Below are positions 44,312 to 61,419 of a stretch of DNA of 64,000 bases, piece after piece. Both the position numbers and the translations under genes were made by a program. The notes beneath the pieces are model-generated. The model was not told where the DNA came from, ran no database searches, and worked only from the letters and a program-made list of their open reading frames with translations. Source of the stretch: a virus; the IMG/VR virus record IMGVR_UViG_3300032282_002092, positions 9,458 to 73,457 of that record. One strand, written 5' to 3'. How positions within the stretch are numbered: position 1 is the stretch's first letter; every line of letters begins with the position of its first letter.

Positions 44312-44665
44312 TTAGCGGCGGCGGGAACCCGGTGCGCCTGTGTGTGTAGATGCTGCGGTGATCTCGTCCGGTGTCATGCGCTCATATGCATAGTCATTCA
44401 GGACAGCGTTGATTCGCCTACCCTTCGATACCGCACGGACAAAACTTCTGAAGCCCTCATAATCGACCTCACGGTAGATGTAGCCCTCGTCGGTACCACG
44501 GTTGGTCCATCGGACCTGCAAAGCATGGTTCTTGTAGTCATACCGATAATCACGAACACGGGACGACGCTGTAGCGCTGATCCACGGACCACAGTCGGTA
44601 TCAATGCCGAGATAGCCCTGTGAAGACGGCTTAACAATTCCACTGCTAGTACCTACATACGGCAT
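44312..44665 (-). CDS. KTSC-domain protein
   Basis: SSRV....YD.....LQVRW...Y.Y..V.......F..A.SKGR..N. Confidence 0.75.
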   Translation of the reverse strand: MPYVGTSSGIVKPSSQGYLGIDTDCGPWISATASSRVRDYRYDYKNHALQVRWTNRGTDEGYIYREVDYEGFRSFVRAVSKGRRINAVLNDYAYERMTPDEITAASTHTGAPGSRRR

Positions 44666-45495: not shown

Positions 45496-45577
45496 GCCCG
45501 AATGGCGAAATAGGCAAACGCAGGGGACTTAAAATCCCCCGTCTAACGACTTGTGGGTTCGATCCCCACTTCGGGCA
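45496..45577 (+). tRNA. trnL: tRNA-Leu, anticodon UAA (reads TTA)
   Basis: Acceptor stem GCCCGAA/TTCGGGC plus discriminator A; anticodon arm GGGGA-CT-TAA-AA-TCCCC (45523-45539); long variable arm; T arm GTGGG-TTCGATC-CCCAC; CCA not encoded. Confidence 0.93.
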
Positions 45578-45581
45578 CTGA

Positions 45582-46208
45582 CTACCGTGGGTTCAGATCG
45601 TCTGGATAACCAGCGTCTGCCCAGCCCTTGTACAGAATTCCTAAGCGATCTACCTTGTGCTTGTCAAAGATGTACGACAAGTTGCCGGGAGTCTCCAAGT
45701 GATTGACAAACGGGATGACGGCGTTAAGCCTGACGGCATCCATGCGCTGCGCAGGGAGTGCAGAGAATAGATCGTGGTGTTCCTGACCCGGAGGTGGTCC
45801 TACGTGTTCAACCTGACGACCGTATGCCATACTCATATCGTCTGCATACGTAACTGGAAGTATTGAGCGCTTGGGGATCAAGTACTGGTGCCAGTACTTG
45901 CGTTCAGGCCAACTTTCAAGCGTCTTAATATGTGGTGCCGTAAAGATAGTTCGGTGTGAGCCGACGTAGTCGTGAATATGTCCACCTGTGTACTCAAGAC
46001 CCATGTTGGCAGCAATCCGAGGATCGTTTAACGCCTCATGGAACTTTGTGCCCGGTGCCTCGTTCAGACGGCTTTCCTGCTCAATACCAAAGCCTGCGTC
46101 GTATGCTCCTGAATAAGTACTCAGGTGTGGTGCCATTTTGCGATCTGAGGCATGCCAAGTAGTAATCCACTCGTCCCTAGTGGGAGCGGCAACATGTAAG
46201 CGTCTCAT
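45582..46208 (-). CDS. ADP-ribosyltransferase-like protein (putative)
   Basis: TWHAS strand 1 and IPFVNHLETPGNLSYIF (aromatic-x-N-x-x-E...S). Confidence 0.45.
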   Translation of the reverse strand: MRRLHVAAPTRDEWITTWHASDRKMAPHLSTYSGAYDAGFGIEQESRLNEAPGTKFHEALNDPRIAANMGLEYTGGHIHDYVGSHRTIFTAPHIKTLESWPERKYWHQYLIPKRSILPVTYADDMSMAYGRQVEHVGPPPGQEHHDLFSALPAQRMDAVRLNAVIPFVNHLETPGNLSYIFDKHKVDRLGILYKGWADAGYPDDLNPR

Positions 46209-46757
46209 TTACCGATTTCTCTTGAAGTCAAACTGTGGCTTATTTGGATCTCCCAAATCCATCTTGACGACACCTTCGCCGGGATGCATACGGCTGATCA
46301 GCGGTTCTGCGGCGATGTATACCGGAATATGCACTCCTTGACGCATTGCTGCAACTGCTCGGTGGTGTCCGTCAAGAACAAGGTTTCTGTCAAGACCGAT
46401 ACCACCGATATTGTGTTTAGTCTGCGCAGCGATAACAGGCCGTAATACACCGTGCCTAAGCACTGACTGCTCTAAGTCTCTCATCTTGTAATCAATATTG
46501 CCGTTCAGTTGGTCGTCTGTAAGGTTATGCCAGTCAAACTCATGCTGCGTTGGAGCAAAGTGGTTCTTAAATTCTAAGGGATGAAGGATGTTATGAGCAC
46601 GAACCCAAATCTTGTCGCCGTGGTTCCAGAGCGGTGCCACAACTGCGCGACGGTTGTTTTGCAATGAATAGTTAAAACGCTCCATATGCTGGGTATCACG
46701 CTTGGTAAGGCGGCTATCAAGAGGCACACCGCCGCTACGTGTGTTTAAGTAGACCAT
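46209..46757 (-). CDS. ParB/Srx-like domain protein
   Basis: L..SV..HGVLRPV...VLDGHHRAVAA...G..IPV. Confidence 0.75.
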   Translation of the reverse strand: MVYLNTRSGGVPLDSRLTKRDTQHMERFNYSLQNNRRAVVAPLWNHGDKIWVRAHNILHPLEFKNHFAPTQHEFDWHNLTDDQLNGNIDYKMRDLEQSVLRHGVLRPVIAAQTKHNIGGIGLDRNLVLDGHHRAVAAMRQGVHIPVYIAAEPLISRMHPGEGVVKMDLGDPNKPQFDFKRNR

Positions 46758-46768
46758 ATGAGTACCTT

Positions 46769-47305
46769 CTAAACCTTCCTAGAGCGTCGAATAGCATTTC
46801 TTACCCATAATCTAGCATCTTTTAATTCATCTTTAGAAACAGGTTGAGTAGTGTCCATAAGATAACTAACATCTGCAACGCCTCTACCATGTACGTAACT
46901 TGACGGCCACTCTGGATTGTACCCAAGATTATTTTCTTGCCATTCCGATGGGTCCCTATCGGGAAGAATAAGTCCGGCCTTAATGGCTCTTTCCACTAAG
47001 GGTCTACTGTTGCTAGACAGACTACTTGAGTGGGTAATTGGACCTAAATCCTTGTACCTATTAAACAATAGTCCCAAAACCGTAGGGACATGAGTTCCGT
47101 GAGCCAGCGAACGGTCAGCCATGAGATAGTGAACCACAAGAGGATCGTGCTCACTAACACTATTGCCGCTATCGGTTTCTGACTCAAGGTCAATCGTAGG
47201 GTGATACTCACCAACGTAATCAGTATAAACAGGAGTTTTGCTTACTGCGAAAAACTGTGATCCACTCCTGTTGTATAAGTGGCGCTGTCTATACTCAATA
47301 GTCAT
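46769..47305 (-). CDS. Array family A (GNAT-like), divergent member
   Basis: VPTVLGLL...ITHSSSLSSNSRPLVER...GLILP...V...EL..AR...R aligns with the three HPNMR proteins. Confidence 0.55.
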   Translation of the reverse strand: MTIEYRQRHLYNRSGSQFFAVSKTPVYTDYVGEYHPTIDLESETDSGNSVSEHDPLVVHYLMADRSLAHGTHVPTVLGLLFNRYKDLGPITHSSSLSSNSRPLVERAIKAGLILPDRDPSEWQENNLGYNPEWPSSYVHGRGVADVSYLMDTTQPVSKDELKDARLWVRNAIRRSRKV

Positions 47306-47994
47306 TTTTCATCCCAAGGCACTTCAGAAATAGTCCAACCGTCATCTGTAACTTTAGTACTTGTATTCCTATGGCGACGCTGCATCTTACGGATGTGCTT
47401 GGTGTGATCACTCTCATGTACACCAACCCAGTCATTAGGCAACGGTGTAGGTAACGGCTTACGAGCATTAACATGCATCAAGTTAAAAGCAGGCGACGGT
47501 ACCAGCAGCGACAATCGGGAATAGGAACCGGGATGGATCCATTTAGGTACCTCTACATCGTTTTGGTACGCAATGGTCTTGTTAGCGCCCAGTGCCTCTA
47601 CGGCCTCGTCAACCTCTTCGGACTCCCAGTCAGGGATATTTCTACGGTTTGATGACGAAATTGCCGTCTTGGTAGGAACGCTGAATCCGTGGCGTTGAAG
47701 CATTACCTTCTGTGCAGCGTTTGCGGTCCAATCGGTAAACACGTTTGGGTGAACCTCAACGTGGTCAGCAAACTGTAAGGGGTTACTCCGGTACCCCTTT
47801 TCAAGGGAATGCTTCATGTATCGGGAAGTTTCTTCATAGCCAACGTGCAAAAGGGGAGCATGGATGAACGTGCGGTACGGGCGATCAGAGACGTGGTACA
47901 CACGCTCCTTGGGCAGGTACTCAAATTCAGTGTCATCCCAAGGTTCCTTGAAATATTGGAAACTTTCGGCAGTTCGGCGCAGGCTAATAGGCAT
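47302..47994 (-). CDS. ADP-ribosyltransferase-like protein (putative)
   Basis: VYHVS, LHVG and IAYQNDVE...SLLVP motifs; start MPISLRR follows GAGGA. Confidence 0.45.
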   Translation of the reverse strand: MPISLRRTAESFQYFKEPWDDTEFEYLPKERVYHVSDRPYRTFIHAPLLHVGYEETSRYMKHSLEKGYRSNPLQFADHVEVHPNVFTDWTANAAQKVMLQRHGFSVPTKTAISSSNRRNIPDWESEEVDEAVEALGANKTIAYQNDVEVPKWIHPGSYSRLSLLVPSPAFNLMHVNARKPLPTPLPNDWVGVHESDHTKHIRKMQRRHRNTSTKVTDDGWTISEVPWDEK

Positions 47995-48005
47995 ATGAGA
48001 GTCCT

Positions 48006-49490
48006 CTACAGGTTGTGCTTGTCCCAAAGTTTGTCAACGCTGTTGCGCGCCTTTTCTGCGTGCTCTTCCTTCAGACCCTTAGGAAGTTCGGGAGCGGGAC
48101 CCATACCAGCACGGTGACGTGCGTATGCCTCCGCATATACCTTCTTTTCCTTATGAACAAGTTTTCCAAGCCACTCATGGACGACAGGATGTAGTTCTCC
48201 AGATACAGCACGTTCCTGAGCAGTACTTGCCTGCTGATCACGGTTCAGTTTGTCAATGTGAGCCTTGACAAGCCTTCCGTGAAGCGGACTGACACCCCAA
48301 TCCGTAACTGGCCTGTTGTTCCTGCGCTCAGTCCTGAGAATATCCGCTTGATGTTCTCTCCAAATAATAGTGTCTTTATATGACTTTTCTGAATTAATAC
48401 CGGCAGCAAGCGCCTCTCCACGAGGAGAACGCTCCGGTGTGCCTGTGGGGGTACCACCGAACTGATCTGTCTCTGGCACAAGATCGGGGAACATGGACAA
48501 CTGAACACGCTCACCATCAATAGCCTTCATGCGTGTACGCCACTCATCACGGTGTGGGTGTTCGCCAGTCACAGGATCGGGATGAGAAATAGCGTGCATC
48601 AACATCCGCTGCGCTGCACCGATATCTGTGGCGATATCCCGCTTACCGTCAACAAGGTCACTCTTCAAGACACCAGCCAGCCGTGCGGCTCCGTGAGCAG
48701 TTGAGTCAGGAACTACCTTGCCAGAAGAGAAGGTTTCTGCACGAGCCTGCTCAAATAGTTGCGGCCCAAGTGCAGAATGGGTTGAGAAGTATTCAGGACG
48801 GTAAGCCCACTGTCCTTTACCATTGGTGTGAAGTAGACGATAGCCTTCAGCACTACCTTCTGCTACTGGAAGTGACATGTCGTGGATGGGAATAGACTCA
48901 AGTTCTGACAGTCCACCACCGGCCCGATAACGGGCTGCAAGTTGCTTGGATACATCAGAATGCGGATCAAGCGCTACACCCAACCTTGCCGACTTATCAT
49001 TCTCAAGCATTTCGTGGCGGCCAAGGTCGTTCTGGAGCGAGTGCGCTGACTCGTGGACCAAAGCGCCACGCTTGTCATCCATAGAATCAAGCCTGCCAGC
49101 CTTATACCTAATGTTTTTACGGGCTGGATCGTACTGACCACCAGTATTTCTTCCTAATTCATGTGCTCCGTAGAAACGCATATAGTCTGAATCAGACTCA
49201 CTGGCTACACGTACACCGGCTTCCTTGATATCTGCAAGAGGCATAGTGCTGCCAGCAATAGCGTCCCTAACCTCGTTAGTTGGACCCATGCGCCCACTTT
49301 GAGCGTCATGCTTGTCAACCCATTCACCAATTTTTGATCTACCAATAGCAGCGTCATACCCATAGTGACTCTCAACAACACTTTTACGGGTCTGGGACGG
49401 GGTCATCAGCCCCTCTAGGGGCAGCACGTATTGGCCGTTGTCCTCCATATGAGGCTCATCGCCGCCGCCACGCCTTCTGCTAACGACCAT
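48006..49490 (-). CDS. Zincin-like metallopeptidase domain protein
   Basis: GGQY...I...ALVHESAH...PVAEGSAEGY. Confidence 0.65.
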   Translation of the reverse strand: MVVSRRRGGGDEPHMEDNGQYVLPLEGLMTPSQTRKSVVESHYGYDAAIGRSKIGEWVDKHDAQSGRMGPTNEVRDAIAGSTMPLADIKEAGVRVASESDSDYMRFYGAHELGRNTGGQYDPARKNIRYKAGRLDSMDDKRGALVHESAHSLQNDLGRHEMLENDKSARLGVALDPHSDVSKQLAARYRAGGGLSELESIPIHDMSLPVAEGSAEGYRLLHTNGKGQWAYRPEYFSTHSALGPQLFEQARAETFSSGKVVPDSTAHGAARLAGVLKSDLVDGKRDIATDIGAAQRMLMHAISHPDPVTGEHPHRDEWRTRMKAIDGERVQLSMFPDLVPETDQFGGTPTGTPERSPRGEALAAGINSEKSYKDTIIWREHQADILRTERRNNRPVTDWGVSPLHGRLVKAHIDKLNRDQQASTAQERAVSGELHPVVHEWLGKLVHKEKKVYAEAYARHRAGMGPAPELPKGLKEEHAEKARNSVDKLWDKHNL

Positions 49491-49562
49491 TAGAATCTCG
49501 TGTTTCCGGTAGACGAGTGACCTGCTGAGTTGTTACTCGTGTTGGGTAATTCGTATACGACG

Positions 49563-49784
49563 TTAGATCCGTCTACTAATGACGCCACTAAGGAACGACC
49601 TGACACGACCCTTGGGGATCTCGGGTCGGGGGATTCCGTGAGGGGATGCCCAGTCTTCACCTTCCTCCTTGGAAGGGCGCTGACCAGAGCCTTCTGGATA
49701 CGCACCCTTAGGAAATGGGCGAGGAATGGGACCGGCGTGGTCGGCTTCCGTGTAAACATCATCATTGTCCCGATTATTAGTCAT
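49563..49784 (-). CDS. Small Pro-rich protein
   Basis: TATCAT-N7-ATG start; internal repeat IPRP.(.)PKG twice. Confidence 0.45.
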   Translation of the reverse strand: MTNNRDNDDVYTEADHAGPIPRPFPKGAYPEGSGQRPSKEEGEDWASPHGIPRPEIPKGRVRSFLSGVISRRI

Positions 49785-49797
49785 GGTTTATATGATA

Positions 49798-50421
49798 TCA
49801 GTAGTCTGTGTGGCTGTTGTGTGCTCGCCTGAATTGATAGTTACGGCCAGCAAAATGCCCAGATACGGACGAACTTCCGCTCAGATCGTGCCAAATACTC
49901 CGTATAGAGGATGGATCTGTAGTGCGTAATTCTTCTGCATTTGTAGCCTTAGTATCTGGATCTAAGTGAATTTTTCCAGATCTAAGTTGTTCATTAATAT
50001 CACTATGATGCTTAGAAACCAAATCATGTAGGTGCTCTGGACCTTCATACTTAAAGTCGTCAACATCTTTAAGCGAGTTAAAGTTAGTAAGCGGAATACC
50101 ACCCTGCTCTACACCGAAATGAGTGAGTCCCCAACCGTACAGGTTTGAACGATCTCGCTCCCTCTGCATAAGTTCTACATGGGTTAGAGCGCCAGACTCG
50201 TGTGGGAACTGTAATACTAAAGAGTTAGTAATACTGCCGTGCGGACTGTCTGATGTCCAAAAATCGGGACGGTTAGCCCATCGGTCAAAATGGGGTACGG
50301 CAGGCAACCGCTTACCGCCAAGCGCTGCGTACGTCCCCCCCAGTTCAATACCAGCCTTTTCCTGCAAATTCAGGAAATGCTGTCGGAATTGATGAGAATC
50401 AAATGCTTCAGGTGTGGGCAT
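49798..50421 (-). CDS. Array family B member
   Basis: FRQH, LGG..LP, PHESG and GPEHL...H motifs. Confidence 0.65.
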   Translation of the reverse strand: MPTPEAFDSHQFRQHFLNLQEKAGIELGGTYAALGGKRLPAVPHFDRWANRPDFWTSDSPHGSITNSLVLQFPHESGALTHVELMQRERDRSNLYGWGLTHFGVEQGGIPLTNFNSLKDVDDFKYEGPEHLHDLVSKHHSDINEQLRSGKIHLDPDTKATNAEELRTTDPSSIRSIWHDLSGSSSVSGHFAGRNYQFRRAHNSHTDY

Positions 50422-50423
50422 GT

Positions 50424-50570
50424 CTAACTCCTACCACCGGGGCGGTTTCTGGGCGATATTAAAAGCGTTATTGGGTCCACTGATTCTTCCAAATACACGG
50501 CGTACGCCACGGGATCCACCTGACCATGCTGTCTGAACCGGTTAGGGTCAAAATCCTTGTGGACGCTCAT
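50424..50570 (-). CDS. 48-aa ORF carrying the family-B N-terminal motif (not in the ORF track)
   Basis: MSVHKDFDPNRFRQH...; the ATG abuts the upstream stop. Confidence 0.45.
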   Translation of the reverse strand: MSVHKDFDPNRFRQHGQVDPVAYAVYLEESVDPITLLISPRNRPGGRS

Positions 50571-51392
50571 TTACATGCCCTCCAAATCCAGTTTTAACTG
50601 GTTTTCATCTACTCCACGCTTACGCCGTTTACCGGCAGTAGAGGTGAGTGCGTGTTCGATACGGTCATAGTTGGCTAGAGGAATGTTGCCGGTACGGTTG
50701 ACGTGGCTACGAGCGAGAGAGTAAAGCCGTTGCATTTCTGGAGACTTCTCTTTAAACAGTTTCGGATATCCAGAAACGCTCATACCCTTAGGTATTCCGC
50801 TGTAGCGGTCGGCGTAGCCGTCTGCAATCCCTTCCACAATAGGATCAGCCGTTCCACCCTTGAACTCAACACCACGCTGCTTATCGTCGTTTGCGGATTC
50901 CATGTGTTCCCAATACTGGGGATGTGACTGCCAATGCTTGGCATGACCAATTTCGTGAGCCATTGTCCGTTGCCAAATATGGGCTTTATTAGGATTCACT
51001 AAATCTGTGTAGTTGACAACAATGCGCCCAGATAAACCATTACCAATTGTTCCGAACGCAGCGCTTGCGTCGTAATCCTTCTTTAGGGCGATCTTCATAT
51101 CCATATCGTTGAGGTCGGCAAGATGCTGAAGAGGAATTTTCGACGCAATAATCGGCATAGCAGCCCGTGCGTACAACTTCCCTAACGCTTTGCGCATATC
51201 TGGGGAAGCGCTTTCTGGCATCTCGGGGAACAACTTTGCCGTGAGATCAATACGACGATTGGCGCTAATCGGGTCATCGATCATGCCGGTACCGGTATTA
51301 GGGTGGAACAACTGGCCCCTACCCTGCTTATCCCAATAAAAACCGTGCTCGTCCGGTGTGGGTTCCTCGTCGTAATGTGCCTCTTCAGTCAC
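50571..51392 (-). CDS. Zincin-like metallopeptidase
   Basis: RTMAHEIGH...PIVEGIADGY. Confidence 0.7.
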   Translation of the reverse strand: MTEEAHYDEEPTPDEHGFYWDKQGRGQLFHPNTGTGMIDDPISANRRIDLTAKLFPEMPESASPDMRKALGKLYARAAMPIIASKIPLQHLADLNDMDMKIALKKDYDASAAFGTIGNGLSGRIVVNYTDLVNPNKAHIWQRTMAHEIGHAKHWQSHPQYWEHMESANDDKQRGVEFKGGTADPIVEGIADGYADRYSGIPKGMSVSGYPKLFKEKSPEMQRLYSLARSHVNRTGNIPLANYDRIEHALTSTAGKRRKRGVDENQLKLDLEGM

Positions 51393-51426
51393 GATCTATC
51401 TTCTTTCCCATACCGTTCCCTAGCCA

Positions 51427-52095
51427 TTATATATCAAGGTTTTTATCTTCAGTGAACTGGAACCGCTTACGTGGATCGAAATAACCATGCTTGGTATCTG
51501 CTATGTCGTCAATGTGCTTGCCAAGCACTATTCCACTTTTTCCAACACCATACGAGAAGTGGGAGCCAGTAATAATGGGAGGATTACTGCGTATTTGAGC
51601 ACGTTTAAATAAACCAGTTTCAGTTACTTCGGGATCAACCTTTAATGATCCCCCCTTTAATCCTTGCCGTATCAAATTAATATGGTCTTGGATTGCGGCA
51701 CCCAAATGATGTGGACCCTCCATTGGTATACGGTCATCATCGTAGCCCCGGTAAACCTGTTCTCCGTGCCGATCTTGAACGCCCCACGTAAAGGGTGGGG
51801 CCATCGTCCATGAGGGACGATTGGTGCCAATTCCTCTACCCTCCATTAACATTTCCGTAACAAGACCGTTTTTATGGGCGAGATGAAAACCTAGGGTTTC
51901 TTCTTCTGGATTTGTTTCGTCATCTGAAAAATATCCGTAATCACCCGCTTCAATAGGGTAAAGGCGACCTCCCACTCGGACATGCCGTGGGGTACGGAAG
52001 TTTATGCCAGCCTCAACTTGAGCGCGAGTAAACAGGTGAGTCATATTTTCAGGGCTGTATGGCATCCCTCGTCTGGGTCCAAGCATGTGAGTCAC
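51427..52095 (-). CDS. Array family B member
   Basis: VGG...P, AHKNG, GPHHL.....H and G.FD...FQFTE motifs. Confidence 0.6.
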   Translation of the reverse strand: MTHMLGPRRGMPYSPENMTHLFTRAQVEAGINFRTPRHVRVGGRLYPIEAGDYGYFSDDETNPEEETLGFHLAHKNGLVTEMLMEGRGIGTNRPSWTMAPPFTWGVQDRHGEQVYRGYDDDRIPMEGPHHLGAAIQDHINLIRQGLKGGSLKVDPEVTETGLFKRAQIRSNPPIITGSHFSYGVGKSGIVLGKHIDDIADTKHGYFDPRKRFQFTEDKNLDI

Positions 52096-52113
52096 TTCCG
52101 ATCAAATGAGGGA

Positions 52114-52148
52114 ACGGTACCAATCATTATACTGATGATTGGTACCGT
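52114..52148. repeat. Perfect 14-bp inverted repeat enclosing a -10 hexamer
   Basis: ACGGTACCAATCAT-tatactg-ATGATTGGTACCGT; the minus strand reads TATAAT across the loop. Confidence 0.8.
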
Positions 52149-52157
52149 ATGCAGGTA

Positions 52158-52877
52158 TTAGATGCCGGGAAGTCGCTCTCCAAAAAATGGGGCTAAATCG
52201 TGCTCCCTCTCCTTATCCCTGCCCAAAATCCTTCTTAAATGTGACTTAGCAAGGTGAAGATCGTTTTCTGGCACTGTGTGTTTGTCTAAATCAAACTTGA
52301 CACCCATTATACTACCCAAATTATCAGCCGCTCGGTTATTGGTCCAATCCCACCCCGGCATCCAAGTGGTAGATAACGTGTCGCTAAAATCGTGGTTGTT
52401 AATTTGTTCAGCGTGAACATTTCTGGGATTAGGAATAATAAGCCCACTCTGTAATCCACGCTTGGCTAGGCGGGAACTAAAGTGTGAGAGGTTTCGATCT
52501 GCTGTCAGGGGTGACAGTTCACGGTGTGCCATAGCCAACAACATGGGAACAGCATGCCGCATATTAGGGTGTGCGAACGCCGTAACGTAATTACCGGGCT
52601 TTACAGAAAACAATGTTTCTGGATCTGGGTAATCACCGTAACGTTCTTGGGCACCGTGGTCGTCAAACATCCATGAAGGCGATACTTCCATGCCGTGCTT
52701 GTCTCTGTTATAAAAATTAGTCCAGATATCTGGGTGCTCTACAGACACGATTGCTGCATAGTGCCGAGCGAGAGTGTCACCCTCTAGCGGCTTTCCTATA
52801 GCGGCATATTCCGTAGTACCCCTAAGGATGCTTTCAGCATGGGGAGCGGGTTGGACGTTTCTCAAATATTTGATCAT
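52158..52877 (-). CDS. Array family A (GNAT-like)
   Basis: ETLF..PG...AFAHPNMRH...LLAMAH...LS.FSSRLAKRG...GLIIPNP. Confidence 0.65.
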   Translation of the reverse strand: MIKYLRNVQPAPHAESILRGTTEYAAIGKPLEGDTLARHYAAIVSVEHPDIWTNFYNRDKHGMEVSPSWMFDDHGAQERYGDYPDPETLFSVKPGNYVTAFAHPNMRHAVPMLLAMAHRELSPLTADRNLSHFSSRLAKRGLQSGLIIPNPRNVHAEQINNHDFSDTLSTTWMPGWDWTNNRAADNLGSIMGVKFDLDKHTVPENDLHLAKSHLRRILGRDKEREHDLAPFFGERLPGI

Positions 52878-53578
52878 TACTGACCCCTTTTACGGTGTTC
52901 AGAGATAATAGAGCGCAAATGGTGTCGGGCCGCTGCCACTTCTATCGATGGAACACGGTCCTCAATTGGATGGAATGACCTACCGGTAACAACGCCCCTG
53001 CTGGTATCCAACAACCCATGCTCTTTCCGCAGTTCAGGCGGCTCGTAGACGATGTTGCTCCAATTAGAGGCTGCTGTGGTATCTGCATACGGATTCTCTG
53101 GGTTCGGAACGACCAGCCCACGCTCCTGCCCCCACTTGGCTAAACGTGAACTGTGCTTGGAAAGAATTTCGGATGGCTGAAGCATTCGGTGCTCCATATG
53201 GGCCATAGCGAGCAAAGTGGGCATCGTGTGGCGCATATTAGGATGTGCGTATGCGCTAAGAATAGTTCCCGGTATATGCGTAAACAGCGTGTCAGGCTCT
53301 TCAAACTCCAGATCGTCAGGACTGCTCTCAGGAATAAGTCTCCGCAAATGCTCCCGATGTTCCCAAGAGTGAACAACAGACTGGTTCGATGACCAAGTGG
53401 CGTTTTCCCAGTTAGTGATGGAGGTCGGCGCAGATACCTGCAACAGTGCAGCGGGACGGTTACCGGTACCGTATGTGCCATCATGCTGGCGTACCCCACG
53501 ATTACTGACTGCCGCATACCAAGACGAGGCCGTACCGTGCTTGGCGCTACCTGTCCGGTTTCTTAAATACATAGTCAC
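52877..53578 (-). CDS. Array family A (GNAT-like)
   Basis: AYAHPNMRH...LLAMAH...SSRLAKWG; start re-called at the GTG after AAAGGA (MTMYLRNR). Confidence 0.65.
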   Translation of the reverse strand: MTMYLRNRTGSAKHGTASSWYAAVSNRGVRQHDGTYGTGNRPAALLQVSAPTSITNWENATWSSNQSVVHSWEHREHLRRLIPESSPDDLEFEEPDTLFTHIPGTILSAYAHPNMRHTMPTLLAMAHMEHRMLQPSEILSKHSSRLAKWGQERGLVVPNPENPYADTTAASNWSNIVYEPPELRKEHGLLDTSRGVVTGRSFHPIEDRVPSIEVAAARHHLRSIISEHRKRGQ

Positions 53579-53668
53579 GGTATGTCCTTTGCAAAAAAAA
53601 TTTGATACACACACTGAGTGATGAAGCGCACTACTATCAGTCACAAAGAGTGAATATGTATACCCATA

Positions 53669-54238
53669 TTAGTGTATTGAACGCGGATCTACAAGAAACT
53701 CTTCTTCTGGACGACGACTCTTCCCAACAGTACGTGTACGTACACCGTGCTCCAGAAGCGATACCCCCCGTACCGAACCGGGTTCCTGTTTCCATACCCT
53801 GCCGGTAGGACCGCTGTACGACGGCTTTGCAAACGAGCGTGCTACGAACCTGTCGGTAGTAAACGACTGTGGATAATCGGGAGCAAGATCGGCCAGTTCC
53901 AGAGGTGAACGCTTGTCGCCACGGTACAATGGCAAGTCATTGGGCCTGCCGTGTATGCGCATGTTGGCATCAAAGGCAATAATGTTCTTGGCTACAGCAT
54001 TCGGTTGCCCCACAAGGAATGACCGGTGGTCGGAAGCCCATCGCCGTAATTGGCGGTCAAACGGCTCTACCTTCAACTCTTCCATGTTTACGGGTCTATG
54101 CCACTTACCGTAGTACTCAGCAGCCTCGTCCGGTGACAACACTTGCCCCTCAGAATTACGCACATGACCGGTCAGTGCCTGTCCCAAAGACATTCCATGA
54201 AGTCTGGAGAACTGGTGGCTAAGAATAATGGGTTGCAT
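53669..54238 (-). CDS. ADP-ribosyltransferase, R-S-E type
   Basis: LYRG...SFTTD..VA..FA...G.V....EEEFLV. Confidence 0.7.
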   Translation of the reverse strand: MQPIILSHQFSRLHGMSLGQALTGHVRNSEGQVLSPDEAAEYYGKWHRPVNMEELKVEPFDRQLRRWASDHRSFLVGQPNAVAKNIIAFDANMRIHGRPNDLPLYRGDKRSPLELADLAPDYPQSFTTDRFVARSFAKPSYSGPTGRVWKQEPGSVRGVSLLEHGVRTRTVGKSRRPEEEFLVDPRSIH

Positions 54239-54979
54239 TTAGCGCCACCATTCCATACCGGGCAACGGGGTGCCGTGCGGCTTGGACTCCTCCTCAACGG
54301 GCTTGTTCCTGCGCAGCAGGTGCCTGAGGTGGTCCTTTGCGGCAAACACGTCTAGATCGGGCATCTTGTCATCCTCCCAGTCCCAATCGTCATTACCGAT
54401 CATGCCACGAGCATTCGTGGGCTTATCGTTCTCATCATCCCATGACGGCGTCCACACACTGCTTGCCCAAGCGGAATCAAAGTTCAGGCCGTTAGTCGGG
54501 CGGTTGCTGGGGTTTGCCCTGTTTTGAACAATCAGACCCATGTCCATACCACGCTGTGCCAAACGGGAACTGTAGATAGATAGACTGTTGGAAGGTTTGA
54601 GCATTCCAAAATCTCTGTGCGCAGCGGCCAACAGGGTCATAATGTGTGGGCGCATATTGGGATGGGCAAACGCCCTTTCGATAGTGCCCGGTTCGTGCCT
54701 GAACAACACGTCTGGGTCGTCTCGCATCTGATACGCATTGTTATGTGAATGTGCTTCACGCTCCGCATCCTCCCAGAGGGCTGAAGGTCGCTTTCCACCG
54801 CTATCAAATGCGGCATTGATCTTGGGGTGGTACACCTCTATGGTTGCAGCCTCACGGGTCGGAAAACGGTGACCAACCGTGTCCTCTGTGGGGCGACCGA
54901 TAGCGGCATAAACAGTCGCACCGTGCGGATTACCGGCCCAGTCACGGGTTGCCTCTCGCCGACGAAGATAACGGATCAT
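54239..54979 (-). CDS. Array family A (GNAT-like)
   Basis: AFAHPNMR...LLAAAH...PSNSLS.YSSRLAQRG; start re-called at MIRYLRRR (alternative 54994). Confidence 0.65.
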   Translation of the reverse strand: MIRYLRRREATRDWAGNPHGATVYAAIGRPTEDTVGHRFPTREAATIEVYHPKINAAFDSGGKRPSALWEDAEREAHSHNNAYQMRDDPDVLFRHEPGTIERAFAHPNMRPHIMTLLAAAHRDFGMLKPSNSLSIYSSRLAQRGMDMGLIVQNRANPSNRPTNGLNFDSAWASSVWTPSWDDENDKPTNARGMIGNDDWDWEDDKMPDLDVFAAKDHLRHLLRRNKPVEEESKPHGTPLPGMEWWR

Positions 54980-54983
54980 AGTC

Positions 54984-55634
54984 TCAGTTGACATCCTTCC
55001 ATGTATGGTTCTTTTCGGTAAAGCGTGATCCCTTCCCGAGATCGAAGGAGCCATGTGCCAAGTTGGACCATAATCCGTACAAGGATCCATGAATAGTGTT
55101 CGGATTAGCATTTGCGTACTTGGTCTGCATACGTAACTGGAGTTCACCATAATCAATAGGATTTTTATTTTTACGTAAGTGTTCGTCCACTGCATTGAAG
55201 TGCCTGCCTAGCAGCGCCCGTAGATGCACAGGGTTGTCGATAGTGAAGTCCGTAGAATCAATGGCTTGGTCCGTCTCACCCGTCATAGTAAATTTCAACG
55301 GGTTCACAACCGTACGGAGACGTACATGAGCCAGTCCCTCGTTCTCACGAACATGATAAAGGGTCAGATCGGAACGCAGTCCGGTTTCGTGAGGGATCTG
55401 TACATGGAGCATTCCGTGCCGTGCCCCACCCGAGGCATAATCCTCACCGGGGGCGACCACTCTGTTGCGTTCCTGTTCTACGATATAGCGAGAGCCACCG
55501 GGAATGGTTGGGATATGAATACCACCGATATTCATGCGACGAGCGTCCATATCGATGCCCAACTGGTTCCTGAAGGTCAACAGGTGACCCCTGAAACGGT
55601 CAGCAAAGTCACTTCTACGGGGATCAAGCACCAT
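54984..55634 (-). CDS. Array family B member
   Basis: MVLDPRRSDF.DRFR.H, IPHETG, LRALLG.HF and FTEK motifs. Confidence 0.75.
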   Translation of the reverse strand: MVLDPRRSDFADRFRGHLLTFRNQLGIDMDARRMNIGGIHIPTIPGGSRYIVEQERNRVVAPGEDYASGGARHGMLHVQIPHETGLRSDLTLYHVRENEGLAHVRLRTVVNPLKFTMTGETDQAIDSTDFTIDNPVHLRALLGRHFNAVDEHLRKNKNPIDYGELQLRMQTKYANANPNTIHGSLYGLWSNLAHGSFDLGKGSRFTEKNHTWKDVN

Positions 55635-56274
55635 GCTCGTACCTCATTTTTTCAGTGAACTTCATGTTGTTCGTCATGTCAAATGTTCCCGTAACCAACT
55701 CACTGGGACCGAACGTCTTAGCACCTACGTTATGGACTCCCAGCGCCCTGCCACGATGAACACTGTCGGTGCTGAGGTCACGGATTCTTGCAATACGCTC
55801 ATAATCCTCAGGTTCCTCACGGATGCGTTCGTTCAATGACTTGAAGTGTTCTCCCAGCAGCGCTCGCAGTGATTGTGCTGACGAATGAATGTCAAAAGCA
55901 CTGCGATTATGTATAGTCGTGTCGATTGGCTTGACCCTATTACTCAGCGGATAGGTGCTCGTATTCACACTGGCAAGGGCAGTACCCTCCTTGGGACGTA
56001 CATGTCCGATGAGTAGGGCGGTACGGTGCCCCGTCTCGTGCGGAATCTCCACGTTGTATTCCCCGTGATACGGAGTCCCAACCTCAATGCTCAGTGGTGT
56101 CTCTCTCCCACTGTTGTCAACATCGTAGTGGTGAGTACCAGAAATGATGGGAATACGATAATTACCCAGTCCTAGGTGCCGCTCCCCGATGTCCAGATCG
56201 AACATGTTCGTGAAATTGGTAAAATGTTCCCTGAACCTGTCAGGAAAGTCACTCCGACGTGGATCTAGCACCAT
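55624..56274 (-). CDS. Array family B member (tandem paralogue)
   Basis: Same motifs and the same 216-aa length as its neighbour; GGAG ribosome-binding site. Confidence 0.75.
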   Translation of the reverse strand: MVLDPRRSDFPDRFREHFTNFTNMFDLDIGERHLGLGNYRIPIISGTHHYDVDNSGRETPLSIEVGTPYHGEYNVEIPHETGHRTALLIGHVRPKEGTALASVNTSTYPLSNRVKPIDTTIHNRSAFDIHSSAQSLRALLGEHFKSLNERIREEPEDYERIARIRDLSTDSVHRGRALGVHNVGAKTFGPSELVTGTFDMTNNMKFTEKMRYEHGA

Positions 56275-56279
56275 TTGTG

Positions 56280-57240
56280 TCTCCCAAAGCGGTATGCACG
56301 TATATCACCATATTAGCCGACCGACCATTCCCGCAGACAGGAAAGTTGCCGAAATTACCCTAAAAACACCCGGCATAGCCAAATATGGCTCAAAAACACC
56401 CGAAAATGCCCGAATATGCAAAAATCATAGGCTCTAAGGCACTATTTCTAGGATTTTCATAGAAATTGCTCATAGGGCACTACTTTGGTGCATTTTTCAT
56501 ATCGCCTATACACGTCCCCTAGGGCATCTGCGGGAATGGTCGGATCTTAATGGTGGGGGGTGTCTGCGGGAGGGGTCGGGCCACCGGGGACGCCGGTGCG
56601 CTGCGGCGCTCGCCCACGGGGCATGTCGCCGTATGGGAACGGCACATGGGGCACGAAACCGGGCTATGGGTGGCTCCTACTCACCAGAGAGAGGACACAC
56701 ACCAGAGGCCCACGTTTCGGTGGCATGTGGAATACCTATGCACTCGCATGCATGGCATGTTGCATATCCATACAGACCTATGCATTGGTCACTGCACTAC
56801 TCAGAATGCAACCTCGTGCGAGACTTTCTGCACACATGCGTAGGGCAACATGGGTGGTTCGACCTGTGTGAGTTGCTACTGGGCTGTGGCTCTGTGTGCT
56901 CTCGCTGCTGCTGCTGCTGCTGTGTGCCTGTCTCCTGTCTGTCTCTCTCTCCTGTCTCGTGGGTCATCCCCCCGGCCCCGGTTTCGGGGACCAGTGGGAA
57001 TCCCACACGGTGGAATGTGTGCTCAAATATGGATTTGCCACGAGAGGTGTCTGTGTGGCTTTCTCACATGCCGTTCTGGATCGTCGGCTGTACGCATGCT
57101 TCCCCTCCATGTGCTCCTCCATATGGGGCTTACAGAGGCCTCTCATGGGATTTCCATATCTCCCTTAGCCCCGAATTCGGTGGCCCAGAAATGCGAAAGC
57201 CCCCGGCCCTGTGTGGACCGGGGGCTTTGGGGCTGTGGGG
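56280..57240. other. Long non-coding, low-complexity junction with a compositional shift
   Basis: No credible ORF; short repeats (AAAAACACCCG twice, GGCACTA twice), a (CTG)n run and a CT-rich tract; GC content rises visibly from about 56520. Confidence 0.6.
57196..57228 (-). terminator. Terminator hairpin
   Basis: AAAGCCCCCGG...CCGGGGGCTTT downstream of the 57245 stop. Confidence 0.75.
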
Positions 57241-57244
57241 CTGG

Positions 57245-58105
57245 TCAGTCCTTGCTGGCCGTCTTCACCATCTTGGCGGTGACGGCATCGGGAGTCTCAC
57301 CGGTCTTGGCAGCGAGCGCCAGTGCGACGGTGGCGACACTGGCGTGCAGTGCGACCATCTGCTCTGCGGTGATGCGGTCGCCGTAGTAGCGAGCGTCACG
57401 CAGTTCGCTGATCGCCCAGTTGCGAGCGGCGACTGCGGTCTTGAAGTACTCCTTGCGGCCGTACTTGTCGGTGACCACGAGTTCACTGCCATCGACCGTT
57501 GCCGCCTTTGCGATGCGCTTGGCCTCACGCTCTGCCTTGGCTGCTGCACGCTCCTCTGCGGCGATCTTGGAAGCCTTGGAGGTGCCGTTCGTCCACTCCA
57601 CGGGAGCAGACGGGAAGCAGACCGAACAGAGGATTTCGCCGTGCGCTTCGACCGCATCGGCCTCCGTCATTCCCGACAGTTCGGGGAGCCATGCGAACGT
57701 GGTGGACGACAGGCAGGTGTGGCAACCCATGTGGCTGTGGACGTGACCGGCCGACGAGGTGACGAGGAAGAAGCGCGACCAGCGGTGCTCCACGAACAGG
57801 GCGGCGAGCGGCTGCATGTCCTCACGGATGCGAGCGATCTCCGCGTCGGCTGCATCAGCGGCGGCGCGGGCCTCCTGCTGGCGGTGGAGGTTGTACGACT
57901 CAGGGGCGACGTACGCACGGGCCGCGTTACGGGTGCCGCTCCACGCTCCACGGCGGTCCTGCGTGTGACCGGCAATGCGGTGGAGGGTGGCGTAGGCGTT
58001 GGCCCACTTGCGGTTGGCGTTGAATGCCTCACTCTCCAGCGCAGCGAGGGCCGTGTCGGTGGCGAGGGCGAGGGTGTGGATGTCGGTGGTGGTGGTGTGT
58101 GTCAT
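57245..58105 (-). CDS. Hypothetical protein with a His/Cys metal-binding motif
   Basis: WSRFFLV...GHVH...CHTC...LCSVCFPSAP; leaderless start MTHTTTT. Confidence 0.7.
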   Translation of the reverse strand: MTHTTTTDIHTLALATDTALAALESEAFNANRKWANAYATLHRIAGHTQDRRGAWSGTRNAARAYVAPESYNLHRQQEARAAADAADAEIARIREDMQPLAALFVEHRWSRFFLVTSSAGHVHSHMGCHTCLSSTTFAWLPELSGMTEADAVEAHGEILCSVCFPSAPVEWTNGTSKASKIAAEERAAAKAEREAKRIAKAATVDGSELVVTDKYGRKEYFKTAVAARNWAISELRDARYYGDRITAEQMVALHASVATVALALAAKTGETPDAVTAKMVKTASKD

Positions 58106-58161
58106 GCCGGGGAGCGTATCGGGCAATGCGCTCACCACAACCTCAGTGCGCAGATTTCTGG
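58106..58161 (-). promoter_or_regulatory. Cassette promoter P1
   Basis: CCAGAAATCTGCGCACTGAGG-TTGTGG-N16-TACGCT-N7-ATG. Confidence 0.7.
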
Positions 58162-58264
58162 CTCGAGACTCAGCAGGCGCTGTGTTGGCCTGTGGGCATA
58201 TCGGGCTATCAGCAGAGCGTGAGCACGTTTGCGTGGCTCTGAGCGCATTCTGGAGGCCTCTCCG

Positions 58265-58390
58265 TCAGGCCTTGCCCTTGTCCTTGTCCTTGCGGACCTG
58301 CTCCCCGGCGGCCGTCAATTTGGCGGCGAACGCATCGACCGGGCTGGTCCGCTTGGTCTTCTTCTTGGGTGTCTTCTTGGGTTCAGTCAT
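58265..58390 (-). CDS. 41-aa Lys-rich peptide (not in the ORF track)
   Basis: TAATTT-N7-ATG; MTEPKKTPKKKTKRTSPVDAFAAKLTAAGEQVRKDKDKGKA; high-GC codon bias. Confidence 0.55.
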   Translation of the reverse strand: MTEPKKTPKKKTKRTSPVDAFAAKLTAAGEQVRKDKDKGKA

Positions 58391-58406
58391 GGCCCCGAAA
58401 TTACAA

Positions 58407-58437
58407 CAGCCCCACCCCCGTGCTGGGGATGGGGCTG
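58407..58437 (-). terminator. Terminator-like hairpin
   Basis: CAGCCCCA.CCC...GGG.TGGGGCTG after the 58453 stop. Confidence 0.65.
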
Positions 58438-58452
58438 CGGTGCCGGGATGGC

Positions 58453-59283: not shown

Positions 59284-59340
59284 GCCCACGAGTCTGGCAG
59301 CGAGGTGAGCGCATACCAACCTCAGTGCGCAGATTTCTGG
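59284..59340 (-). promoter_or_regulatory. Cassette promoter P2
   Basis: CCAGAAATCTGCGCACTGAGG-TTGGTA-N17-CAGACT-N7-ATG; upstream block identical to P1. Confidence 0.7.
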
Positions 59341-59355
59341 GCGTACCGGGATATG

Positions 59356-59388: not shown

Positions 59389-59410
59389 CGCTGGTATGGC
59401 ACTCAGCGAA

Positions 59411-61051
59411 TCACGAGACGAACCTGCGGAGCACGGCCTCCATGACCGACTCGCTGGGGACCGTCACGTCGGGGTTGCCGATGTTGATGGCATCGGTGAT
59501 CTGGGCCTTGGTCTGGAGCACGTCCCAGAGGTCCATGTCGAACGACGGCTCGCCGTCTGCGTAGGCGGTCTGGAGGACGTGGTAGTTGACCGTCTCGCCC
59601 CGGTCAGCACGGGCCTTGCTGAGATCGTCGCAGCGGAGCGTGCGGCCTGCGGCCTGAGCGATGGCACCGGCCGACCATGGCAGTTGCACGAACAGCGTGT
59701 CGCTGGCTGCGGTGAGCGTGACGGCCTGCGAGGCTGCGGCCAGTTGGGCGAGGATGACGTTGTACCGGCCAGTCTGGAAGCCTTCCTCTGCGTCACGGCG
59801 GCTGGCGGCGGTGGACGAACCGTTGATCTCGCACACACGAGCGCCAGCGTTGAGGAACGCAGCGGCGAGGGCCGTGTACACGGAGCGGTGCTCGTAGAAC
59901 ACGACGATGCTCTTGCCCTCGTCCAGCAGGGGCTGGGCCAGTTCGACGGCCGCATCGACCTTGGCGAGGCCTGCGTACTCACGGAGGCGCATCAGTTCAA
60001 GGATGACCTGCGCACGCTCTGCACGCCACGCTGCGTCCACGCCCTTCTGCTCACGCACCCAGTCAAGGAAGTTTCGCTTGATGCGGTCGTACGTGCGCAT
60101 TGCATCGTTGGCGACGGCGAGGGGCTGCACGAGCCAGCCGAAGCCGGGGAGCATGCCGGGGTCCATCTCGCGCTTCTCACGGCGCACGTAGCAGGTGCTG
60201 CGCAGGTTGTGGTGGAGGTCAAGCAGGTTGGCGAAGCCGTCGAACGAGTAGCCGTAGCCGTTGTTGACCGGGTTGCAGTACCGCCACTTGAAGGCGCTCA
60301 GGGTGCGAGCAGCAACGCCGTCCTTGGCGGCAACGGCCTTCACGAGGTCGTCCCCCCCGGCGATGCGAATCTGCATGAGCGCCTCAATCGGGCGGTTGCT
60401 GGTGAGCGTGCCGGTGGCGACCACGACGGCACCGCCACGGCTGCGCACGTCCTCTGCCACGGTGAGCATGACGTGACCACGGAGGTTCGGCTCGCCTGCG
60501 TTGCCCTTGTCACGGTGCGACTCGTCACGCACCACGAAGTCGATGGTCTGGGTGAGGGCGTTGGCGGTGTAGACCTTCTTGCCGTTCACCTTGGCGGTGT
60601 CGCAGAGCCACGCCTGAAGGGTGCGCGGGTCGTCGCCCATCCACACGATGTTGGCATCGGCCGGGACGGCGGTCGGCTTGTGACCGAAGGCCTTGAACAT
60701 GCGGAGGCCGGGGAACGTGGCGGCGAGTTCACGGACGTAACCGGAGTAGTTGGCGACCGGGGTGACGATCAGCGCACGGGTCTTGCTGTGGATGGCGAGC
60801 AGGGCGAGCAGGACACGGGTCTTGCCCATGCCCATGTCATCTCCCAGCACGAGGCCACGGCGGCGGCTGATCACGTCGATGCCTGCCTTGATGGCTGAGT
60901 ACTGGTGGGGGTAGAGCGAGCCAGCGATGAGGCCGGGGATGTCGAACGGCTCGCAGGCAAGCGACTGCGATGCGGTGACGACTGCTGCGATGTCGTCAGC
61001 GGTCGGCTTGGGCTGGGTGAGGGGCTGCTGTGGTGAGGTGAAGAGTGCCAT
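59411..61051 (-). CDS. SNF2-family (SF2) helicase/translocase
   Basis: LYPHQ, LGDDMGMGKT, DESH, TGT...NRP.E, RREK, LTAA...F.QLPW and QA.GR..R motifs. Confidence 0.9.
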   Translation of the reverse strand: MALFTSPQQPLTQPKPTADDIAAVVTASQSLACEPFDIPGLIAGSLYPHQYSAIKAGIDVISRRRGLVLGDDMGMGKTRVLLALLAIHSKTRALIVTPVANYSGYVRELAATFPGLRMFKAFGHKPTAVPADANIVWMGDDPRTLQAWLCDTAKVNGKKVYTANALTQTIDFVVRDESHRDKGNAGEPNLRGHVMLTVAEDVRSRGGAVVVATGTLTSNRPIEALMQIRIAGGDDLVKAVAAKDGVAARTLSAFKWRYCNPVNNGYGYSFDGFANLLDLHHNLRSTCYVRREKREMDPGMLPGFGWLVQPLAVANDAMRTYDRIKRNFLDWVREQKGVDAAWRAERAQVILELMRLREYAGLAKVDAAVELAQPLLDEGKSIVVFYEHRSVYTALAAAFLNAGARVCEINGSSTAASRRDAEEGFQTGRYNVILAQLAAASQAVTLTAASDTLFVQLPWSAGAIAQAAGRTLRCDDLSKARADRGETVNYHVLQTAYADGEPSFDMDLWDVLQTKAQITDAINIGNPDVTVPSESVMEAVLRRFVS

Positions 61052-61107
61052 GACCCAGAATCTAGCCACGGGCTGGGCCGTTACCCACCCCAGTGAGCCG
61101 ATTTCTT
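61052..61107 (-). promoter_or_regulatory. Cassette promoter P3
   Basis: AAGAAATCGGCTCACTGGGG-TGGGTA-N17-TAGATT-N7-ATG. Confidence 0.65.
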
Positions 61108-61419
61108 GGCCCGATGAGCAGAAATAGCCTCTGACCTGCGGAAACGTGCTCACTATGCGAAAGACCCTGTTGAACACTGGGTTTCTGACGATTTCACCCC
61201 CTCTGAGCAGGGCAAATGCCGATATCAGAGAATCGTCATTTCGCTCAGGATCGACGTGGTGAGCAGAAATGGGTGCGTAGTGCGCAGGATTCGTGCGTGG
61301 CTCTGAGAGCGAAATAGAGGCCTCTCAGGGAGAGATCATCCCGTATCCCCATATGCAACCTGTTTGTGGGATTTCTTTGTCTGCGGGAGGCGTCGGTGCG
61401 ACGAGGCCGGTTAACGGGA

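Follow-up and report, generated by a model that had tools for sequence, protein, structure and literature searches.

A variable cassette of small genes in a virus contig, with candidate sliding-clamp-binding C-terminal tails on a subset of its products

We analyzed an array of small genes at positions 45582-56274 of a 64,000-nucleotide window, which runs from base 9458 to base 73457 of one virus contig 73,457 bases long (IMG/VR record IMGVR_UViG_3300032282_002092). The reading that we favour, with slightly better than even confidence, is that the array is a lineage-specific accessory cassette, that it forms a transcription unit of its own, and that a subset of its products is addressed to the sliding clamp. 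The cassette would consist of solo small proteins of the kinds known from polyvalent proteins: four GNAT-like proteins (family A), two zincin-like HExxH proteins, one ParB/Srx-like protein, one ADP-ribosyltransferase (ART)-like protein, four proteins of a second family (family B) and three orphans (g01, g04 and g05b). Within infected cells, these proteins would target host proteins or complexes bound to DNA. The clamp-addressed subset would take in g07 and g12, probably also g09, and the bulk of family A at large; a disordered C-terminal peptide of the beta-clamp type would direct these proteins to clamp-loaded DNA by docking in the hydrophobic pocket of the host DnaN. At the clamp, they might modify or cleave clamp-associated host factors, or might just occupy the pocket and disturb host replication. 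The direct basis of this reading is gene structure, paralogy, the size of family A, motif statistics and structure models, and from these we infer enzymatic activity, the timing of expression, clamp binding in vivo and the targets.

The array contains 14 minus-strand open reading frames (ORFs) of 178-494 amino acids and one ORF of 91 amino acids, all co-oriented. With starts refined from paralog alignments, the 15 ORFs fill 96% of the interval, and the junctions between them range from -11 to +149 nucleotides. A preliminary description of this DNA had counted about 16 co-oriented, tightly packed genes; the co-orientation and packing were borne out, but the count is 15. The two families of four that it had recognized were recovered by all-vs-all BLASTP alignment, as family A (g03, g09, g10 and g12; 28-40% identity, E values of 1.6e-38 to 3.9e-5) and family B (g06, g08, g13 and g14; 23-34% identity, E values of 4.5e-31 to 4e-3). 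An additional family B fragment, also listed there, was not found: a hidden Markov model (HMM) search in all frames of 44.6-57.3 kb brought up no further fragment of either family at E<=1, and elsewhere in the 73,457-base genome there was no additional copy. Because the identities within families A and B are 23-40% and long DNA repeats are absent from the array, the copies are old and diverged, not recent duplications. When family A was compared by hhalign with family B, g02, g04 and g01, the probabilities were 0.1-0.4%, and no deep link between the families was seen.

Library searches named little of the array. None of the 14 larger array proteins reached the Pfam cut-off, only g02 among them matched PHROG families, and NCBIfam added no match. 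Sequence searches of the PDB with g11, g07, g05, g02 and the alignments A2 and A6 gave nothing below E 0.5. Among cultured phages, no match was found to the array by megablast, nor to g09 or P0019 by tblastn. A word-index search of 5.8 billion proteins matched g09 and family B to this genome's own proteins only.

Family A turned out to be large. An exhaustive profile search returned 341 representatives at E<=1e-3, 114 of them at E<=1e-10. A functional name was found for none of ten family A relatives, and of 116 members none had a PHROG match and one had a marginal Pfam match. In this genome, all four members lie on the minus strand: g12 (54239..54979; 246 amino acids from MIRYLRRR, with the tail ..TPLPGMEWWR), g10 (52877..53578; 233 amino acids), g09 (52158..52877; 239 amino acids) and g03 (46769..47305; a short divergent member of 178 amino acids). 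The longest ORF of g12 extends to 55195, but the start at 54979 is favoured by the alignment with g09.

The member that we modelled is g09. An AlphaFold2 model made with 116 sequences had a predicted local distance difference test (pLDDT) of 84.8 and a predicted template modelling score (pTM) of 0.81, and showed a single domain with a disordered tail. All 50 matches listed by VIA for g09 had Z scores of 4.6-6.3 and root-mean-square deviations of 2.6-4.6 over 82-117 aligned residues, and most titles among these 50 were acetyl- or acyltransferases. The BFVD matches of g09 were two proteins from uncultured phages, both uncharacterised (E 3.8e-9 and 7.3e-8), along with weak NAT_SF entries (E 0.13-1.5). 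The acetyl-CoA pyrophosphate-binding signature of GNAT proteins is Q/RxxGxG/A before helix 3; the conserved loop of family A reads LSxHSSxL, and its S134 is invariant across 116 sequences. Taken together, the model comparisons are consistent with a GNAT-like fold for family A, with uncertain catalytic competence. The ESM Atlas was set aside as a source, as its own models of g09 and g13 were poor (pLDDT 0.32 and 0.39) and the best feature match of g09 (0.91) was to unnamed clusters.

The extreme C-termini of family A are conserved, ending in ..QFxQxxLPGME, ..QLSLFQFGD, ..EQLRLF or ..EQLRLDI. The tail motif takes forms of the type QLxLxL, QLxLF or LPG[MILV][ED]. Of 150 family A members, 126 have one within their final 20 residues, compared with 0/150 and 1/150 in two internal 20-residue windows. 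In this genome the motif ends 6 of the 689 ORFs of at least 50 amino acids, namely g07, g09, g12 and three short plus-strand frames. We also analyzed relatives of the contig, which comprise 24 IMG/VR loci (L001-L024) whose terminases are 46-82% identical to that of the contig, mostly 70-82% with two loci at 46%. On the coding strand of these loci, 13 of 491 unique ORFs carried the motif C-terminally and 17 of 491 carried it N-terminally, versus 1/392 and 2/392, respectively, on the opposite strand (p=0.005 and p=0.002). A separate count of motif bearers in the high-GC genome G001 was discarded, as the greedy gene set there lacked known genes.

The proteins that bear the motif in the relatives are unrelated to one another and include g07-type zincins (..QPQLPGMED), family A and several other proteins; the N-terminal versions read ..EQLSLF.., ..EQLQLF.. 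or MDQLQLKL... The gene directly following the terminase encodes a protein of about 290 amino acids with a motif at each end (L011:2755-3624; the 293-amino-acid ORF of L013), and a conserved protein of about 95 amino acids encoded just before the terminase opens with one (L006:8961-9239, L016:7749-8036 and L020:9092-9397). When ten motif-bearing proteins of the relatives were compared with this genome by tblastn, none matched at E<=0.01. The feature shared across families is the C-terminal tail and not an N-terminal leader. A wider proposition, that this clade uses terminal QLxLF, QLxLxL and LPGME clamp peptides as a general address label on many unrelated proteins, among them enzyme-like effectors such as the GNAT-like family of 341 members and the zincin peptidases, we hold tentatively and with somewhat less than even confidence.

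Copies of family A were counted in the relatives as well. The complete genomes with terminal repeats, G001 (107,196 bases) and G002 (117,405 bases), have one copy each and the fragment G003 has three, compared with four here. In a quick, weakly supported tree (2 of 37 branches starred), g09, g12 and g10 fell together, and g03 grouped with tail-less copies of the relatives at 91 in the SH-like approximate likelihood ratio test (SH-aLRT).

We take the QLxLxL form of the tail to be a hexapeptide variant of the beta-clamp motif. The bacterial beta-clamp-binding consensus given in the available text of two papers is QL[SD]LF (PMC3716654, PMC12867686), and the pentapeptide tails fit it. A clamp motif of this kind is expected to be a terminal peptide in a disordered segment, and this is what was found: g07, a minus-strand zincin-like HEIGH protein of 273 amino acids (50571..51392), ends in ..ENQLKLDLEGM, with the peptide ..NQLKLDLEGM at its terminus, and the tail blocks of family A have pLDDT values of 60-66 in the g09 model. 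A complex model of g07 residues 224-273 with DPO3B_STRCO, the DnaN of Streptomyces coelicolor, reached 0.78 over three runs, whereas the best of three controls reached 0.00. The 0.78 mark is attained by 51 of 78 solved complexes and by 2 of 108 mismatched pairs. The runs agreed in at least 56% of contacts, with a partner pLDDT of at least 45. On the g07 side, the modelled interface comprised residues 260-262 and 264-273, and the pairs of lowest error fell at 264-268 (N-QLKL). On the DnaN side it comprised residues 169-174, 244-250, 322, 346-348 and 368-375, the region of the canonical peptide pocket. Because many clamp-peptide complexes have been solved, this model shows likeness to solved complexes and not binding by the g07 copy itself. 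A search of G000, G001 and G002 turned up no gene for DnaN, and any clamp partner would therefore be that of the host.

Several observations weigh against the favoured reading. The GNAT assignment of family A rests on Z scores of 4.6-6.3, which VIA rates as middling; Foldseek found no PDB match to the g09 model at E<=0.001, and no Gly-rich Q/RxxGxG/A signature is visible in the conserved LSxHSSxL loop. For family B, the model is too weak (pLDDT 63) for a fold to be named. The tail is present on only 3 of the 15 cassette genes; g09 has a degenerate version (..ERLPGI), and neither g10 nor g03 has one. The commonest family A form, LPG[MILV] (78/150), is not a documented clamp motif in the available portions of PMC3716654 and PMC12867686. 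DPO3B_STRCO is a stand-in for the clamp of the actual host, and in the complex tool cross-organism pairs seldom reach the mark and passes can reflect memory of solved complexes. Finally, a consensus scan for promoters and terminators was not above shuffled sequence (10 vs 13.0 +/- 3.6, and 12 vs 12.7 +/- 3.4).

Some of these points bear on an alternative that we regard as unlikely, namely that the array is an accessory host-interaction block whose QLxL-type peptide binds a hub other than the clamp, such as a phage protein, RNA polymerase or a protease adaptor. The dominant LPG[MILV][ED] form (78/150) departs from QL[SD]LF, and a conserved QF precedes the tail (..PQFxxxxLPG..), an element that the clamp motifs described in the available text of PMC3716654 and PMC12867686 do not need. 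The complex result may also be a memory of solved clamp-peptide structures. However, LPGME, QLxLF and QLxL[DG][IL] alternate at the same position of family A, and the QLxLF and QLxL[DG][IL] endings fit the clamp consensus as far as the same two papers set it out (PMC3716654, PMC12867686), and also its hexapeptide form. In the models, moreover, the g07 tail sits on one defined surface of DnaN, with the controls at 0.00.

Clamp tethering is the usual coupling of enzymes to new DNA, and the Mom DNA-modification enzyme of phage Mu has been assigned to an acyltransferase fold. The clamp-addressed GNAT- and ParB-like enzymes might travel with the host clamp in the wake of the fork and modify or process the phage's own new DNA, in self-protection or in replication-coupled control, instead of attacking host proteins, although we consider this distinctly unlikely. 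In late transcription, according to the accessible part of its description, MuC of phage Mu relies on a clamp motif at both its N- and its C-terminus (PMC12867686); the relatives have the protein with motifs at both ends beside TerL, the large terminase, and the protein of about 95 amino acids with an N-terminal QLxLF upstream, and they encode a DNA polymerase of polymerase family A but no clamp. A zincin peptidase such as g07, on the other hand, would be odd as a DNA-modifying enzyme, and the tblastn search of this genome found no homologue of the small motif-bearing proteins of the relatives. An arms-race cassette also accounts for the four diverged paralogs and the poor conservation among relatives better than a role in core replication would.

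The preliminary description had drawn attention to the other end of the proteins. It reported short Arg-rich N-terminal leaders and proposed that such a signal possibly loads the proteins into the capsid for injection with the DNA, pointing to the ART of phage T4 (Alt), which is packaged in the head; the T4 internal proteins are a further parallel. In T4, these proteins are encoded at a variable locus and share an N-terminal capsid-targeting peptide that is removed by the prohead protease. We scored a leader as RR or RN in residues 2-9 and compared the array genes with the other genes. With first-start gene models, 5 of 13 array genes and 7 of 75 other genes had a leader (p=0.014); when any start in the first 75 codons was allowed, the counts were 10/13 and 12/75 (p=2.6e-5). 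These counts are inflated by paralogy, as families A and B each supply several genes. The enrichment is thus present but modest, and it is marginal with first-start models.

Other points are compatible with capsid loading. The leader occurs in about six of eight independent gene lineages by a tally of N-termini, the cassette lies near packaging genes, and its repertoire resembles that of polyvalent proteins, which Iyer et al. argue, in the available text, travel with the DNA (PMC5512222). A 264-amino-acid gene at 37564-38358, between TerL and the portal gene, starts MVSSRRQ, like MVVSRRR of g05; it has the only leader-like N-terminus near the head genes. The structural data point the other way. 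In the g09 model the family A leader is strand beta1 (residues 3-10), its first ten-residue block has a pLDDT of 96, and an N-terminus of the form M-x(1-3)-[YF]-[YFLVI]?-[RK] is found in 82 of 150 family A relatives. Because it is beta1 of a confident model and is conserved across the family, the family A leader reads as part of the fold itself and not as a removable tag of the T4 type; this concerns one third of the leader-bearing genes. For family B, the modelled RR stands just before helix 1. No shared motif of a cleavage type was seen after the leaders among the array N-termini, and plus-strand genes and a tRNA lie between the cassette and the late operon, so that the cassette stands apart from the terminase operon. 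We conclude that an N-terminal capsid-loading signal is unsupported and that loading of these proteins into the capsid by way of it is very unlikely.

The two HExxH zincins of the preliminary description stood at the level of motifs, as g07 (HEIGH) and g05 (HESAH). The HExxH motif and a downstream EGxADGxxDRY are invariant in 4/4 sequences (g07 and three homologues from related phages), and so are the residues H146, E147, H150 and E187, the last of which lies in EGxADGxxDRY. The protein g05 (48006..49490, minus strand; 494 amino acids) carries HESAH and AEGSAEG and pairs with the g07-type zincin of locus L021 at HExxH and EGxA[DE]G (E 0.018); it had no library match. A Pfam M48 match, at E 0.065, was below the cut-off. 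Both g07 and g05 therefore have the HExxH and the downstream third ligand expected of a zincin, at motif level, and g05 is plausibly a distant relative of g07 in one zincin-like family. Between g05 and g06 lies g05b (49490..49765, minus strand; 91 amino acids). Its stop codon shares one base with the start of g05 and, judged from this overlap, it is probably a coding gene.

Of the three ART-like genes proposed earlier, one retained that description. The protein g11 (53669..54238, minus strand; 189 amino acids) has YRG, FTTD and ExE, which are invariant in 4/4 sequences including three homologues at 54-59% identity, and it fits an R-S-E ADP-ribosyltransferase-like protein by motif, with no match in Pfam, PHROGs, NCBIfam or PDB sequence searches. 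The other two, which we assigned to g01 and g04, matched nothing. Neither g01 (45582..46208, minus strand; 208 amino acids, starting MRRLH; the last gene of the unit) nor g04 (47302..47994, minus strand; 230 amino acids, starting MPISLRR) had a library match or matched the other, and hhalign of g04 against family A gave a probability of 0.3%.

The ParB-like assignment of g02 (46209..46757, minus strand; 182 amino acids, containing DGHHR) was weak. Five PHROG families matched g02, three of them named ParB-like partition protein, the best being phrog_2159 (E 2.1e-4), but Pfam ParB_N was below its cut-off (E 0.09; 13.3 bits vs 26.3), and TIGR00180 scored 14.2 bits (E 0.028) versus a cut-off of 58.45. 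The N-terminus of g02, MVYLNTRSGG, is like MxxYLRNRTGS of family A, and its C-terminus, ..KPQFDFKRNR, recalls the PQF element before the family A tails. For homology between g02 and family A, hhalign gave a probability of 0.4%.

Family B is encoded, also on the minus strand, by g14 (55624..56274; 216 amino acids, starting MVLDPRR), g13 (54984..55634; 216 amino acids, overlapping g14 by 11 nucleotides), g08 (51427..52086; 219 amino acids from MLGPRR) and g06 (49798..50421; 207 amino acids). The first two are 34% identical (E 4.5e-31), and g14 had no Pfam or PHROG match. An AlphaFold2 model of g13 from the four paralogs alone had a pLDDT of 63.1 and a pTM of 0.63. The best VIA match had a Z score of 5.7 (the FP domain of Fbxo7), about 11 matches were type III secretion chaperones (Z 3.6-4.8), and Foldseek returned none at E<=0.001. 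Family B would thus be four proteins of an unnamed alpha+beta fold. Its relatives were sought by word index, while the exhaustive HMM search was made for family A only, and its orphan status is therefore unproven. Three assignments were rejected: a 2H phosphoesterase, guessed from two conserved His residues, was supported by nothing; DUF932/DUF3871 for g13 in the ESM Atlas (0.77) was below the lead level of that tool; and the weak likeness to chaperone or immunity folds (Z 3.6-5.7) was no evidence for a relation to antitoxins. Within the 71-nucleotide gap between g09 and g08, a perfect 14-nucleotide hairpin with a 7-nucleotide loop is present at 52114-52148.

PHROG scans placed a tail sheath, baseplate wedge, collagen-like fibre, major head protein, portal and large terminase on the minus strand of the contig, and these matches identify it as DNA of an uncultured, contractile-tailed phage. 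The terminase is 45-47% identical to those of Streptomyces phages such as BRock and 40% identical to that of Bacillus phage BCD7. CheckV put the completeness of the contig at 76%. The DNA polymerase of polymerase family A that the relatives encode is absent here, and the replication module is therefore probably located in the missing part. Profile searches for related loci found none with alignments A1 and A2 in viral contigs and none with A5 in genome or metagenome contigs. Locus L033, a match of P0019 in genome contigs, was dropped as an ordinary low-GC bacterial chromosome with a chance match of 52 residues. The G+C content of the relatives L001-L024 spans 0.47-0.65, a breadth unusual within a single clade, which suggests that their hosts differ widely in composition.

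The cassette occupies a hypervariable slot between a SNF2-like helicase module and the packaging and structural module. Of the whole array, only g07-type zincins and family A recur in the relatives, whereas the small genes upstream of TerL are conserved in up to 23 ORFs of the relatives. The upstream anchor of the slot is a conserved SNF2-like helicase of 588 amino acids (59411..61177, minus strand; phrog_62, E 3.7e-47), which is 42% identical to its homologue in G001. It aligns to positions 690-1132 of the 1881-position phrog_62 profile (DNA helicase) and, weakly, to very long 'methyltransferase' profiles that probably represent giant multidomain proteins. On the terminase side, the first conserved gene encodes a KTSC-domain protein (44312-44665; Pfam E 3.6e-7), conserved in 21 ORFs of the relatives. 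Farther on, a metallophosphoesterase gene (39778-40938; phrog_20266, E 7.4e-65) lies between the terminase and portal genes; at this position the relatives have a different protein, which ends in ..IQDSLFD.

The flanks suggest that the cassette is transcribed separately from both neighbours. At the upstream end, the minus-strand intergenic region 56275..57244 has a GC-rich hairpin and a T-run directly after the gene at 57245-58138, followed by an AT-rich stretch; this region likely holds a terminator and then the cassette promoter, which would lie in 56.3-56.5 kb. At the downstream end, plus-strand genes and a plus-strand tRNA lie between the array and the terminase operon and converge on the array 3' end. 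The tRNA, a tRNA-Leu(TAA) at 45496..45578 and the sole Rfam match, stands four bases from the g01 stop, and the unit would end there, at 45.58 kb. Because of the hairpin and T-run after the 57245-58138 gene on one side and the convergent tRNA and ORFs on the other, we infer a separate transcription unit. A 17-nucleotide perfect inverted repeat, CCGACCATTCCCGCAGA, occurs at 56321-56337 and 56527-56543, with a third copy at 56561-56579 (89% match). The CCGACCATTCCCGCAGA repeats bracket the AT-rich stretch upstream of g14, where they may serve as paired operators of the cassette promoter. At about 56.6-57.2 kb, the G+C content rises from about 0.50-0.53 to 0.62-0.72 and remains high to the contig end, the remaining genome being at about 0.52. 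The high-GC part (56600-64000) still has phage genes, among them the helicase homologous to that of G001 and a protein matching phrog_15500, and the jump may reflect a recombinant mosaic or an assembly chimera.

If the wider proposition of a clamp address label is true, the toolkit brought to the host sliding clamp would be an undescribed class of phage effectors aimed at the replisome. Should the tails bind DnaN, diverse phage enzymes would have the clamp as their landing pad, and it would be more than the target of single phage inhibitors or the cofactor of one transcription factor; there would also be a testable route to the roles of large unannotated phage gene families; family A, with 341 representative clusters that are unannotated in Pfam and PHROGs, would gain a fold, a partner and an assay. 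Binders of the clamp pocket also have practical appeal as leads for antibacterials. Should the tails prove not to bind, the array would be an ordinary hypervariable accessory cassette of solo polyvalent-type domains. Literature searches that combined phage, clamp-binding motif and acetyltransferase found nothing, and those that combined DnaN and phage gave no effector family by title; within the literature searched, clamp-tagged enzyme-like phage families are not in print.

In comparison with T4 Alt and the internal proteins, the cassette shares a variable locus, small diverse proteins, a short terminal peptide common to several of them, and an ART or, here, an ART-like protein among them. Unlike in T4, the family A N-terminus is part of the fold, and the peptide that crosses families is C-terminal and clamp-like.

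Polyvalent proteins, as described in the accessible text of Iyer et al. 2017, combine 2-15 domains in one polypeptide (PMC5512222). The same text describes solo GNATs among mycobacteriophage late genes and loci of several small ORFs with such domains (PMC5512222). The cassette is like these systems, as far as that text presents them, in its GNAT-like, zincin-like, ART-like and ParB-like classes, in the SNF2 helicase nearby and in the adjacent structural genes. The view of the preliminary description that the array is a 'disassembled polyvalent' effector cassette agrees with the domain types and with the nearby helicase, but the idea had already been described in the part of PMC5512222 at hand and is not new. 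Unlike in polyvalent proteins, each domain here has a gene to itself, and two families have grown to four paralogs apiece; with 15 separate ORFs of 91-494 amino acids in place of a single polypeptide, the array products are at most solo counterparts. By Pfam they are also not detectable members of the described families, since 0/14 of the larger array proteins reach the cut-off, and g02 alone has weak ParB matches. The shared C-terminal tail has no counterpart in the accessible text of PMC5512222, and the term 'sliding clamp' does not occur in that paper.

The tails themselves are like those of MuC/Mor of phage Mu (PMC12867686) and of insertion sequence (IS) transposases (PMC4549789), which, in the available text of these papers, are Q-L-x-L-F-type peptides at the extreme terminus that dock on the host DnaN. 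MuC, in the same text, has a clamp motif at each end (PMC12867686), as does the TerL-adjacent protein of L011 and L013. Unlike MuC and the transposases, the bearers here are enzyme-like (GNAT- and zincin-like) proteins and many unrelated small proteins, the commonest form is LPG[MILV][ED], and binding is modelled. The clamp-targeting toxins SocB and those of pneumococcal toxin-antitoxin systems offer a further comparison; unlike the cassette proteins, they are toxins of chromosomal toxin-antitoxin systems in the portion of PMC12795458 available. Like them, as that portion describes them (PMC12795458), the cassette would supply small proteins that are predicted to act via DnaN and to disturb replication.

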